A DNA stretch of 64,000 bases from Escherichia phage pEC-M719-6WT.2. Shown in pieces: positions 3,265 through 45,125 of the stretch. The DNA lies in the sequence record OQ845958.1; one strand, given 5' to 3'. Every line of letters starts with the position of its first letter. The stretch's first letter is position 1. The notes beneath the pieces are model-generated. The model was not told where the DNA came from and made no database searches. It saw nothing but the letters and a program-made list of their open reading frames with translations. A program made the translations under genes and the position numbers.

Positions 3265-3637
3265 TGATTTCGTAACGGGTCGTGGGTCTGAGGTGGATTC
3301 ATATATTGGGTGGTTGTTAGTCTCTTTGGCTTATTTTAAATCCGCCCATCTTGAAACCAAAAGTTACGCCCGCCATAAAGCTTATGATTTCTACTTCACA
3401 GAAATCCAAGGTCCACTCGACCAGTTCAGTGAGCAATGGTTAGGTTACAGCGGGAAACAATACAAAGCTGCATTACCGTCCGCCTCGGACTTGCCGAAAG
3501 ATACAATTTTGTTTTTAGATGAAATGATTAAAAGCTCGGAAAGAGTCTATAAAGTTGTACCTAAGGCTATTCAATCGACTCTGGACGATATCGTTGGAGT
3601 TTTCTTTCAAACTAAGTATCTGTTAACACTAGAGTAA
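3254..3637 (+). CDS. hypothetical protein (rI.1 position)
   Basis: 127 aa; overlaps rI end; followed by intrinsic terminator. Confidence 0.45.
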   Translation: MKFDDFVTGRGSEVDSYIGWLLVSLAYFKSAHLETKSYARHKAYDFYFTEIQGPLDQFSEQWLGYSGKQYKAALPSASDLPKDTILFLDEMIKSSERVYKVVPKAIQSTLDDIVGVFFQTKYLLTLE

Positions 3638-3644
3638 TTCAAAA

Positions 3645-3673
3645 GGTCTGCCTTCGGGTGGACCTTTTTTTTT
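3645..3673 (+). terminator. rho-independent terminator
   Basis: GGTCTGCC-TTCG-GGTGGACC hairpin followed by a 9-T run. Confidence 0.65.
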
Positions 3674-3683
3674 CATTTAGGGG

Positions 3684-3713
3684 GTTTACATCCTCATAAA
3701 AAGGGTGTACTAT
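3684..3713 (+). promoter_or_regulatory. early promoter (GTTTACA -35, 17 nt, TACTAT -10) with conserved leader
   Basis: -35/-10 spacing of 17 nt; followed by conserved leader TATCCCATCAACTACTGAGGAG and ATG at 3742. Confidence 0.5.
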
Positions 3714-3741
3714 TATCCCATCAACTACTGAGGAGAATACA

Positions 3742-3945
3742 ATGAGAATTAAAAATATCAAGATTGATGCAGTTAATACTGGTGATGAGGTTGTTATCTA
3801 TCTTAATGATTATGCAATCTTTATGGACAGTGCCACTGATGAAGAAGTTGTTGAACTCTTACAGAAAGCTCCATTTGAACTGTGCGAAGAAGATGCTACT
3901 CATCTTTCATCAGCAATTTTCTCATTATCATATGTGGTGGAATAA
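3742..3945 (+). CDS. hypothetical protein
   Basis: 67 aa acidic ORF downstream of early promoter; SD GAGGAG. Confidence 0.45.
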   Translation: MRIKNIKIDAVNTGDEVVIYLNDYAIFMDSATDEEVVELLQKAPFELCEEDATHLSSAIFSLSYVVE

Positions 3946-42069: not shown

Positions 42070-42548
42070 AAGTATATGAATTAGAATTCTATGTCCGTGA
42101 TTCCGCTGGACAGACACGTCCTTACGATGCAACAGCCTGTCTTATCTTGCCATATAATGGCATGGATTCAGTTACTGAGTTGGAAACAAAATTAATGAAC
42201 CTGACGATGCCAGAAAACGTTATGCTGAAGGTATTTCATAGAAAAAACGTTGATGTTGCCGAAGGGTGTCCGTTTACTGTTTCTGAAGCTCTGCACATCA
42301 AAGGCTATCGCCACCCGGACCTTTATGGCGAAGATACCATTTTCTATAAAGATAGAGATAAAATGGCCACTGAACGACTTAAAGGTCGCACATATCTGAT
42401 TTCTGCACCTGAAGACCTTGCTGAAGTTGAACGTCAGATTTGGAAGCACTTTGATATTGGCCTACGCTTTACTTTAACAGAAGAAGCTATGCACGATACT
42501 AAAGTCCGAGCTCGTATGTATGGTTACGGCCCTATCGGTGGTTACTAA
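42066..42548 (+). CDS. hypothetical protein
   Basis: 160 aa. Confidence 0.5.
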
Positions 42549-42727
42549 TGGATTTATTTGAACTTTTTGAAGAGCCTAAAGCTCCTACGGAAGCCCGTGT
42601 GGACCTAGTTGACGAACTTGATGCGATTATACAGAAGCACGGTTTTAGCCTCCCAATGGAAGTTCTACGCGACCTGGCCTCATATTACGACGACCCACCT
42701 CCATGGGCACCATGGGTGAAACAATGA
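42548..42727 (+). CDS. small acidic protein (59 aa)
   Basis: hand-translated; TAATG and ATGA overlaps. Confidence 0.3.
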   Translation: MDLFELFEEPKAPTEARVDLVDELDAIIQKHGFSLPMEVLRDLASYYDDPPPWAPWVKQ

Positions 42728-42972
42728 ACTGGTTAACAAATATTCCCACATCGGCGCTGGATATCGACCGTAAACATGCTCATAAGGAAATCGAGCAACA
42801 AAAAATTAATCGTTTACAAAGGCTTAAGACTGAATCCGAGACAATTAAAGTCGAAACCCCGATAAAATCGAAAAGTTCTTACTCATCATATCAATCTCCA
42901 TCATATCAATCTCCGATTGGTATGGCCGTAGACATTGCAGTCTTTGGCGTTCCACTTGGAGTGTTTAAGTAG
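42724..42972 (+). CDS. hypothetical protein with SSYSSYQSPSYQSP segment and C-terminal hydrophobic helix
   Basis: 82 aa from ATG 42724. Confidence 0.4.
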   Translation: MNWLTNIPTSALDIDRKHAHKEIEQQKINRLQRLKTESETIKVETPIKSKSSYSSYQSPSYQSPIGMAVDIAVFGVPLGVFK

Positions 42973-43028
42973 TTTACTTACTCCCCTCCTAATGACATAA
43001 TGGTCTTTCTTACAACAGAGAGACCATT

Positions 43029-43589
43029 ATGAACATCATCAAATCTGATACCGAACCCAACCAGTTAAAATTTAGTGAAATGGAGATAGCTTCATTATTT
43101 GAATGCCGTACATCAAAGGTTGATAAGACCTTGCATTCAAATGTCAACTCAATCATCAAGTCAAGGTTGTCTATACCCGATACAGTCTTGTGGCGCGGGG
43201 TAACCCAGCAAGAGATTGATTTATTAGATGAAGCAAAAGAATCAATGCAACCTTTTGAATTTGGACGGGTAACCTCCTTTACAGAAGACTATGGTATTGC
43301 CAGGGATTTTGCTGCAATGGAATATGTGACAAGGACTATCGTCAGATTGAATCAGACCAAAGCTTTTTGTTACCATGATGCGATGCGCAAAATCGCACTT
43401 GATGTTCCACTTGAATTCTTCAATACAGCTTCTGGTTCCGCCCAGGCAGCTACATTAAGGCGTGAAGAATACATGGACATGATTGATTCTGAGCTTGAAT
43501 GGTTTGTTCCAGTTGACCAGAAATTCGTGGTAGTTGATGCTGGATTTATTGATGATTATTATGTTCTTGACTGTGTACAAGAGCAATAA
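43029..43589 (+). CDS. ADP-ribosyltransferase (ModA/ModB family)
   Basis: 186 aa; R-S-E triad elements: LWRG, TSFT, ELEW; located between soc and dda as T4 modA/modB. Confidence 0.65.
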   Translation: MNIIKSDTEPNQLKFSEMEIASLFECRTSKVDKTLHSNVNSIIKSRLSIPDTVLWRGVTQQEIDLLDEAKESMQPFEFGRVTSFTEDYGIARDFAAMEYVTRTIVRLNQTKAFCYHDAMRKIALDVPLEFFNTASGSAQAATLRREEYMDMIDSELEWFVPVDQKFVVVDAGFIDDYYVLDCVQEQ

Positions 43590-43602
43590 GACACGTTAAG
43601 AT
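43573..43602 (+). promoter_or_regulatory. early promoter inside 3-prime end of upstream gene (GTGTACA, 17 nt, TAAGAT)
   Basis: followed by conserved leader GTTCCTATCAACTACTGATGAGG; supports ATG 43634 as true start. Confidence 0.45.
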
Positions 43603-43633
43603 GTTCCTATCAACTACTGATGAGGATAATAAA

Positions 43634-44248
43634 ATGCTGTACACTGATGACGTTTTGAATGGAATTATTAACACTGCCGCTTCTAGTGAGTCTTTTCGTA
43701 ACCAATGTCAAGCGGAGATTGATGCTCTTTATACAGATAATGAGCAATCAGTACTCTGGCAGTGTATGGAAAATAAACCTGACCTGATTCAAGAAGACTT
43801 GTCCAGGATTATCCGCAACAATCTGAATACTGCACCGCCGGCAGCATTGTTCCGTGGTATATCAAAGAAAACCATGGAATACCTGGAAGATTTAAGATAT
43901 GTTGGTGCAACAATTGAATTCAATCGTGTAATGAGTTTTTCCAGGGACTGGCAGGTTGCAAGAAATTTCGCATCATACAGTTTCTATGGAACAAGGAACA
44001 TTTTCTGTATAAACAATGCACCATATGCGTATAACTATCAGGAAGCAATCTTCAAAATGATTTGTGGTGCTCCTCCTGAAGAGTTCAATGGTGCATATCC
44101 AGAAGCAACCAGGAAGTCAAACTTGCACCTGGTTAATGATGAAGATGAGTTTATGTTTCCCGCTGGGACTACGCTCCGCGTAGACTTGATTGAAACACAC
44201 CCATTGAATAACCTGTATACTGTTTGGCATTTAACTGTTTTGAACTAA
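43634..44248 (+). CDS. ADP-ribosyltransferase (ModA/ModB family)
   Basis: 204 aa; LFRG, MSFS, EDEF motifs; paralogous to upstream gene. Confidence 0.65.
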   Translation: MLYTDDVLNGIINTAASSESFRNQCQAEIDALYTDNEQSVLWQCMENKPDLIQEDLSRIIRNNLNTAPPAALFRGISKKTMEYLEDLRYVGATIEFNRVMSFSRDWQVARNFASYSFYGTRNIFCINNAPYAYNYQEAIFKMICGAPPEEFNGAYPEATRKSNLHLVNDEDEFMFPAGTTLRVDLIETHPLNNLYTVWHLTVLN

Positions 44249-44381: not shown

Positions 44382-45125
44382 ATGAATATGTCAAAAGAAG
44401 AGTTTGAATTAAAAGTTTACAAACGTCGCGAGCATACCAAAACGTCTGCAAAACGTCGTAACAAGGATTTCAATCTGTCTAGTAAGTATATTGCCAATCT
44501 TTTGAAACAAGAATTCTGTGCGTATTCTGGTGAACGTTTTGATGAAAATTCAACTCAAGATAAAGTTTCCTTTGAACGCTTTAACAATGATATAGGTTAT
44601 ATTGAAGGCAATGTTATCCCTGTCAAAACTAAGTACAACGGTTTACGTGCTGATTTATCTCTTGATGAACTTAAACGTGCACAGACTCGTTTGGCGGTGC
44701 GTATTAATGGCGGTTCTAAGATGCCCAATAGTTTTAAAGTAACTCCCGCTGACTATTATAAAATTCGCAAAATTGTTAAAAATATTAAAGATACCGAACG
44801 TGGAATCAAGAAGCGTCAAAAACATTTAAAAGAGCTTTATAAAAGTGGCGCTAAAGATACCACCCCTTCTGTGATTGCAGTCAAGGCTCGTATCCATGGA
44901 CAAATGGCTTCCATCGGAACTAGTCAACGTGGGCTGAAAATGGTTATGGGTGGTCCTGACTGGCGTCTGAAAATGAAATCATCTGACGCTGAAACGCGTT
45001 ACGATATGTATGATAAAATTATTCAAGGTCTGGAGCGTTTAGATAAGTTGTCATTCATTGACCGCCTTAAACTGAAACGTGGTCTGCCTTTGAACGCGTC
45101 AATTTTTAAACTGATTAGAGGTTAA
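44382..45125 (+). CDS. Srd-position protein (assignment by synteny and size only)
   Basis: 247 aa; lies between mod genes and dda like T4 srd (about 250 aa); basic N-terminus; contains an HNH-reminiscent stretch. Confidence 0.35.
   Translation: MNMSKEEFELKVYKRREHTKTSAKRRNKDFNLSSKYIANLLKQEFCAYSGERFDENSTQDKVSFERFNNDIGYIEGNVIPVKTKYNGLRADLSLDELKRAQTRLAVRINGGSKMPNSFKVTPADYYKIRKIVKNIKDTERGIKKRQKHLKELYKSGAKDTTPSVIAVKARIHGQMASIGTSQRGLKMVMGGPDWRLKMKSSDAETRYDMYDKIIQGLERLDKLSFIDRLKLKRGLPLNASIFKLIRG

Follow-up and report, generated by a model that had tools for sequence, protein, structure and literature searches.

Two tandem genes of Escherichia phage pEC-M719-6WT.2 (sequence record OQ845958.1) very probably encode arginine-specific mono-ADP-ribosyltransferases of the T4 Mod family that act in host takeover, with a macro-domain gene of the same phage most likely serving a separate function, that of T4 Tk.4 (AdfM). 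The DNA analysed, referred to here as the window, is a single stretch of 64,000 nucleotides (nt). The region around the two ADP-ribosyltransferase (ART) genes shares 98% identity with Escherichia phages ECML-359 and EAWsc9 and with Yersinia phage vB_YenM_P8, and approximately 90% with VR7, VR20 and VR25, all of Gaprivervirus; matches at the start of the window were again to these phages. The window comes from a T4-like E. coli phage, another isolate of the group that holds Gaprivervirus VR7, ECML-359, EAWsc9 and vB_YenM_P8. For the ARTs, family membership, catalytic residues, a predicted ART fold, synteny and purifying selection were established. Their products are called the upstream and the downstream protein below, in the order of their genes, and all coordinates are collected in Table 1.

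Both proteins matched PHROG 832, 'RNA polymerase ADP-ribosylase', with an E value of 4e-28 for the upstream and 5e-39 for the downstream protein. In BLASTP comparisons the upstream protein was 32% identical to T4 ModB (E 3e-23) and 29% identical to T4 ModA (E 2e-13), and the downstream protein 36% (E 3e-28) and 34.5% (E 1e-18) identical, respectively; the two window proteins are 28% identical to each other. An earlier reading of the sequence alone, the first-pass annotation, had called both proteins ModA/ModB-type on the basis of three R-S-E signature motifs. All of these were found, in homologous alignment columns: LWRG (residues 54-57), TSFT (82-85) and ELEW (155-158) in the upstream protein, and LFRG, MSFS and EDEF in the downstream protein. 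Given the PHROG 832 and BLASTP E values, the motifs reflect homology and not chance matches, and with the R-S-ExE elements in register the proposed identity was borne out.

The catalytic residues are R56, S83 and E155-x-E157 in the upstream protein and R74, S101 and E170-x-E172 in the downstream protein (numbered on 204 amino acids). The Arg, Gly, Ser and both Glu were invariant in an alignment of six sequences (the window pair, T4 ModA and ModB, and the VR7 proteins), and the same positions were invariant across 30 family representatives, where C26, K30, G57, F94 and Y99 were also invariant family-wide. Catalytic reference positions were taken from published T4 mutants. ModB R73, whose replacement in R73A inactivates the enzyme (PMC10468400), aligns with R56 and R74 of the window proteins, and ModA E165, whose E165A mutant is likewise inactive (PMC11404850), aligns with E157 and E172. 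The catalytic glutamate, on whose proper alignment the first-pass annotation had made the identification depend, is kept in both proteins.

The two open reading frames (ORFs) were present on the same strand as originally described, with one correction to the start of the second. Its longest ORF begins at 43601, but a GAGGA Shine-Dalgarno (SD) sequence ends 8 nt upstream of an ATG at 43634, and homologues of the downstream protein are all approximately 204 amino acids in length and begin MLY..., so that 43634 is most likely the true start. The early block in which the pair lies reads mrh.2, mrh.1, srh, modA.4, modA.3, modA.2, a small ORF, the two ART genes, srd, dda.1 and dda; in Pfam scans mrh.1 corresponded to DUF7206 and modA.3 to the T4_MRH family. 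Gene order at the locus is the same in T4 and VR7, and synteny with T4, VR7, JS10 and PhAPEC2 places the tandem ART slot of the window between modA.2 and srd. The position agrees with that of T4 modA-modB, as had been suggested, with the gene in the modB position first and that in the modA position second; T4 modB is likewise transcribed first and modA second. On these sequence comparisons, the view of both genes as T4 Mod-family R-S-ExE ADP-ribosyltransferases at the modB/modA locus is right.

The pair is not new to the databases. The modB/modA proteins of VR7, VR20, SP18, ECML-359, EAWsc9 and vB_YenM_P8 are 94-99.5% identical to those of the window, and the Gaprivervirus, ECML-359, EAWsc9 and vB_YenM_P8 loci have the same gene order and differ from the window in nothing of substance. 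Records of close relatives already label the genes, as modA/modB in near-identical phages and as modB or ADP-ribosylase for the upstream gene in VR7 and EAWsc9. A ModB/ModA-type gene pair is already known from this annotation of near-identical genomes, and its T4 prototypes have been characterised experimentally. A tblastn search of the window with four Mod proteins gave no further ART copies, although Alt is too divergent to be excluded by such a search.

Table 1. Features discussed in the text, in order of position in the window.
Feature	Position	Strand	Basis
Macro-domain protein, T4 Tk.4 (AdfM) orthologue, 154 amino acids	1018..1482	+	Pfam Macro, PHROG 335, Tk.4 identity, synteny
modA.2 homologue, upstream synteny flank	42548..42727	+	ORF list; VR7 annotation modA.2
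Small Gaprivervirus-specific ORF	42703-42972, probable start 42724	+	PHROG 14077; VR7ORF023c
Candidate early promoter and hairpin	42973..43031	+	GTTTAC, 17 nt, CATAAT; RNA fold
Mod-family ADP-ribosyltransferase, modB position, 186 amino acids	43029..43589	+	PHROG 832, R/S/ExE, predicted model, synteny
Mod-family ADP-ribosyltransferase, modA position, 204 amino acids	43634..44248 (longest ORF 43601-44248, 215 amino acids)	+	PHROG 832, predicted model, SD
srd homologue, downstream synteny flank	44382..45125	+	PHROG 1400 Srd anti-sigma factor, E 1.9e-89; T4/VR7 order

Both proteins gave confident AlphaFold models, with predicted local distance difference test (pLDDT) scores of 90.6 (upstream) and 89.5 (downstream). 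Foldseek searches of the PDB with these models returned ADP-ribosyltransferases of the R-S-E clade only, at probability 1.0 and template modelling (TM) scores of about 0.5 for both proteins. The matches included HopU1, C3, iota Ia and VIP2 for the upstream model and Tre1, C3 and Certhrax for the downstream model, and CDTa was also among the R-S-E fold matches of the Mod models. Against the predicted viral structures in BFVD, the upstream model matched annotated phage ModA/ModB models with TM scores of 0.74-0.90. Both proteins are accordingly predicted to have an ART fold of the R-S-E (cholera-toxin/C3-like) clade. Their likeness to the bacterial R-S-E toxins (C3 exoenzymes, Tre1, HopU1, iota Ia, VIP2 and Certhrax) is one of predicted fold and catalytic motif, at 8-15% sequence identity; the latter are secreted, as toxins or effectors, and act on other targets, whereas the window pair are phage early proteins. 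When the PDB was searched by sequence with both ARTs, only chance-level matches were obtained, and no Mod-family structure was turned up in this way; the matches by fold were to bacterial toxins only.

Several observations weigh against this reading of the pair. Neither Pfam-A nor NCBIfam contained a model that either ART matched above threshold, the only hits being weak ones to DRAT at 14-16 bits. As T4 ModA and ModB are likewise without a curated Pfam or NCBIfam match, this is a gap in the libraries and not counter-evidence; a precomputed Pfam label, PF26816, is present on all database homologues of both proteins. The remaining points concern the correspondence of each protein to ModA or ModB, for which orthology was assessed from a matrix of BLAST scores and from a neighbour-joining tree with bootstrap support. 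In BLASTP, both window proteins scored higher against T4 ModB, the top-scoring T4 protein for each, than against T4 ModA. The tree was star-like, with its deep branches unresolved and only shallow clades supported; it placed T4 ModA as a long branch outside the clade of second-position genes, and put the upstream protein in a clade of its own, apart from T4 ModB and the first-position genes of Dhaka- and Mosigvirus. At about 30-36% identity, moreover, the target specificity of the T4 enzymes would not be safely transferable to the window proteins.

Other results from the same comparison favour correspondence by position. The best matches of T4 ModA were second-position proteins, at 86, 72 and 69 bits against 0-54 bits for first-position proteins, and the downstream protein grouped, at 100% bootstrap support, with its second-position counterparts in the Dhaka-/Mosigvirus phages JS10 (65% identity) and PhAPEC2 (55%). 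T4 ModA (NP_049635; 200 amino acids) is encoded in the same slot as the downstream protein, directly before srd, and its catalytic E165 is conserved there, but the two proteins differ at nearly two-thirds of their positions. T4 ModB (NP_049636; 207 amino acids) is encoded in the same slot as the upstream protein, directly after modA.2, and has the same R-S-ExE elements, but the upstream protein is 21 amino acids shorter at its N terminus. A word-indexed protein search yielded 12 clusters with the downstream protein as query and only 2 with the upstream one. When 1.84 billion cluster representatives were searched exhaustively by profile, just 71 family members were recovered at E <= 0.001, which indicates that the Mod family is small and fast-evolving. 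Since this fast divergence leaves orthology unsettled, the names should not imply targets: outside Tequatrovirus, modA and modB are positional names and not statements about what the enzymes modify.

Two tandem Mod genes occur in Tequatro-, Dhaka-, Mosig- and Gaprivervirus, and a single Mod gene occupies the same slot in the Tevenvirinae genera Jiaodavirus (Klebsiella phage KP179) and Winklervirus (Serratia phage CBH8). The CBH8 protein is roughly equidistant, at 39-43% identity, from T4 ModB, from both positions of JS10 and PhAPEC2, and from the downstream protein of the window, and is just 30% or so identical to T4 ModA and to the upstream protein. In sequence it behaves like what might be a slowly evolving stand-in for the gene before duplication.

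The upstream protein is the more divergent of the pair, sharing approximately 30% identity with each of the other Mod proteins compared, T4 ModB and the first-position genes of JS10 and PhAPEC2 included. Its clade, with 100% bootstrap support, contains only the other Gaprivervirus copies and three metagenomic representatives. Of its matches in the phage collection, those in 33 records stood at 90% identity or above and those in the remaining 898 all lay under 60%, and its nearest relatives from outside Gaprivervirus, P0027 and P0028, had no match of at least 60% identity among sequenced phages. Its predicted model also has no counterpart to the two helices with which the downstream model begins at the N terminus. 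It is therefore possible, if rather unlikely, that the upstream protein is functionally distinct from T4 ModB, a lineage-specific ART with different host targets and, for example, an anti-defence role. T-even ARTs have scored in a defence screen, and Alt and the Bas37 ModA orthologue have been reported to act against Mokosh type I. On the other side, the upstream protein and ModB are alike in fold, catalytic residues and size class, their genes occupy the same slot, and fast divergence is a property of the whole family, so that low identity is no proof of a new target.

The preferred reading, of a tandem Mod pair acting in takeover, leans on the T4 enzymes for its biochemistry. T4-type ARTs are NAD-dependent (NAD, nicotinamide adenine dinucleotide) and arginine-directed, and modify host proteins during takeover (PMC8120803; PMC10468400). 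By analogy, the ExE motif and this biochemistry point to arginine as the probable acceptor for both window enzymes, and the position of the genes, together with promoter-like sequences, suggests early expression. Both genes would be expressed early from the modA.2-modB-modA-srd-dda block, and their products would use host NAD+ to place ADP-ribose on arginines of host proteins, which would aid the takeover of transcription and translation; a ModB-like enzyme may also transfer NAD-capped RNA. The downstream protein appears to be the better candidate for the ModA role, directed at RNA polymerase alpha, and the upstream protein the better candidate for a ModB-like role, directed at S1, EF-Tu and others. 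Trigger factor is also among the substrates of T4 ModB. Modification of RNA polymerase alpha at R265 is known for T4 ModA only (PMC8120803), and the targets S1, EF-Tu and L2, with the RNAylation activity, are known for the T4 ModB enzyme only (PMC10468400).

The macro domain that the first-pass annotation had reported near the start of the window is a true one. The protein scored 29.3 bits (E 9e-7) against Pfam Macro PF01661, above the cut-off of 22 bits, a model against which T4 Tk.4 itself scored 27.7 bits. It matched PHROG 335 with an E value of 1.5e-65 and was 58% identical to T4 Tk.4 over its full length (E 1e-70), and its gene neighbourhood is as in T4: vs, tk.4, tk.3-tk.1 and tk. Sequence matches in the PDB were to BT1257, SCO6735, the M. 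tuberculosis DarG macrodomain 5m3i and TARG1. According to a 2025 preprint (bioRxiv 10.1101/2025.11.20.689424), tk.4 is the single T4 gene required on a host expressing DarTG2, and its product was named AdfM. This anti-DarTG2 activity was shown for T4 only, in that preprint, and the window copy is known by sequence and position. By analogy, the macro protein would most likely protect phage DNA from DarT2-type ADP-ribosylation. The other eraser of T4 is the NADAR protein AdfN, the product of gene 30.3 (PMC11825919).

A point against this function lies in the active site, as the DarG sequence NFPTKKHW aligns with NLYTQYE of the macro protein, leaving Gln at the position of the catalytic Lys (K80 in TaqDarG, K84 in TARG1). 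T4 Tk.4 (tk.4 at 3426-3890 of the T4 sequence compared) also has TQ for the catalytic TK, and TARG1 D125 aligns with Ala in the macro protein, as it does in T4 Tk.4, BT1257 and SCO6735. In these two replacements the Tk.4/AdfM macrodomains resemble the BT1257/SCO6735 subgroup. Homology to the DarG macrodomain (5m3i) and to TARG1/OARD1 is detectable over the whole macro fold, and the proteins have glycine-rich loops in common, PRIGCG among them. The match to the NCBIfam DarG model NF048014 covered its macro region (positions 19-148 of 338) at E 1.3e-6 and scored 27.9 bits against a cut-off of 250, and the protein, at 154 amino acids, is without the C-terminal DarT-binding domain and lacks the full DarG architecture. 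If AdfM removes DarT2 adducts enzymatically, then it does so without the catalytic lysine of DarG.

For the macro protein the first-pass annotation had offered two roles, the tuning of the phage's own modifications and the countering of host ADP-ribosylating defences. The second is favoured by the identity to Tk.4/AdfM and the shared location, and the first is unlikely because of the linkage involved. In its fullest form the first proposal would be a circuit in which ADP-ribose attached by the Mod enzymes, or by Alt, is taken off again by the Tk.4-like protein, so that these modifications are tuned over time. Both ARTs and the macro domain do occur in one genome, and the macro relatives SCO6735 and TARG1 remove protein-linked ADP-ribose (PMC8120803). 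The marks made by T4 ModB, however, are arginine-linked N-glycosides, which are removed by ARH1 and not by hydroxylamine, an ester-cleaving treatment, or ARH3 (PMC10468400), whereas macro and TARG1-like enzymes act on Asp and Glu esters, O-acetyl-ADP-ribose and nucleic-acid adducts, with arginine being the province of DraG/ARH enzymes (PMC8120803). The genes also lie 42 kilobases apart in different gene blocks with no genomic coupling, and sensitivity to DarTG2 is the only reported phenotype of T4 tk.4. Erasure of Mod marks by the macro protein is therefore improbable and was rejected. The macro protein is best regarded as AdfM, likely a counter-defence factor against DarT2, and not as a partner of the Mod enzymes.

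The T4 Alt/ModA/ModB system is well documented, as are macro, NADAR and Nudix genes in T4-like phages (PMC9503650; PMC8120803), and the finding of the ART pair has little significance beyond correct annotation. Interest attaches mainly to which proteins the divergent upstream lineage modifies, and to how an AdfM-type macrodomain would work without the lysine. A combined proposal, put forward here tentatively and with the balance tilted against it, is that the upstream protein represents a separate Mod lineage, confined among sequenced phages to those of the Gaprivervirus type, possibly with other targets or an anti-defence role, and that the AdfM family, without the DarG lysine, would oppose DarT2 damage by a mechanism other than that of DarG.

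A degenerate copy is frequent among tandem paralogues, and one or both ARTs could in principle be catalytically dead remnants of duplication that act as binding proteins or decoys. The catalytic Arg, Ser and both Glu are intact and, like the five other family-wide positions given above, invariant, and both fold models are confident. The ratio of nonsynonymous to synonymous substitution rates (dN/dS) relative to VR7 was 0.11 for the upstream gene and 0.06 for the downstream gene, values that indicate strong purifying selection on both. A dead paralogue in either position was rejected as very unlikely.

That the two ARTs might modify the small Ser/Tyr-rich proteins whose genes lie just before theirs is a suggestion drawn from adjacency only. 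It was rejected as scarcely credible, since the ExE motif and T4 biochemistry indicate arginine acceptors, the Ser/Tyr-rich stretches contain no Arg, and the nearer of these ORFs, at 42724-42972, is absent from T4, JS10, KP179 and CBH8, all of which have Mod genes. Among the phages compared, this small ORF between modA.2 and the first Mod gene was found in Gaprivervirus-type phages only; PhAPEC2, outside that comparison, has a small ORF in the same slot. In the product of the window ORF, a Ser/Tyr-rich stretch precedes a hydrophobic segment at the C terminus. The ATG at 42724 overlaps the modA.2 stop codon (ATGA) and is probably the start, as the profile match to PHROG 14077 begins at residue 8.

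Between the small ORF and the upstream ART gene lies a candidate early promoter. A promoter and terminator scan gave site counts that were not above shuffled expectation. In the RNA fold, a long hairpin of -21.4 kcal/mol (z -6.9, 0 of 200 shuffles reaching it) joins the -10 region of the candidate to the start of the upstream ART gene, taking in both its ATG and the SD-like GAGAG. This arrangement is kept before the first Mod gene in VR7, JS10, PhAPEC2 and T4, and of its 14 consensus pairs, three show compensatory double changes. It suggests a start site that is masked in read-through transcripts and open to translation in those that begin at the proximal promoter. Such hidden-start arrangements are known for T4 genes e and soc.

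On the other side of the ART pair, the Srd homologue matched, over its N-terminal 100-136 residues, PHROG endonuclease, HNH endonuclease and endonuclease VII families as well, with E values from 2e-15 to 2e-4. In sequence this hints at a possible HNH/zinc-finger-like origin for this 'anti-sigma/decoy' protein.

Many product names in the deposited annotation of Yersinia phage vB_YenM_P8 have evidently been mis-transferred between 58900 and 108800. These include runs of 'thioredoxin' for ORFs of the nrdC region and 'molybdenum ABC transporter' for modA.2-modA.4, the latter apparently through confusion with bacterial ModA. The 'molybdenum ABC transporter' label was also found in UPEC01, UPEC07 and KP179.

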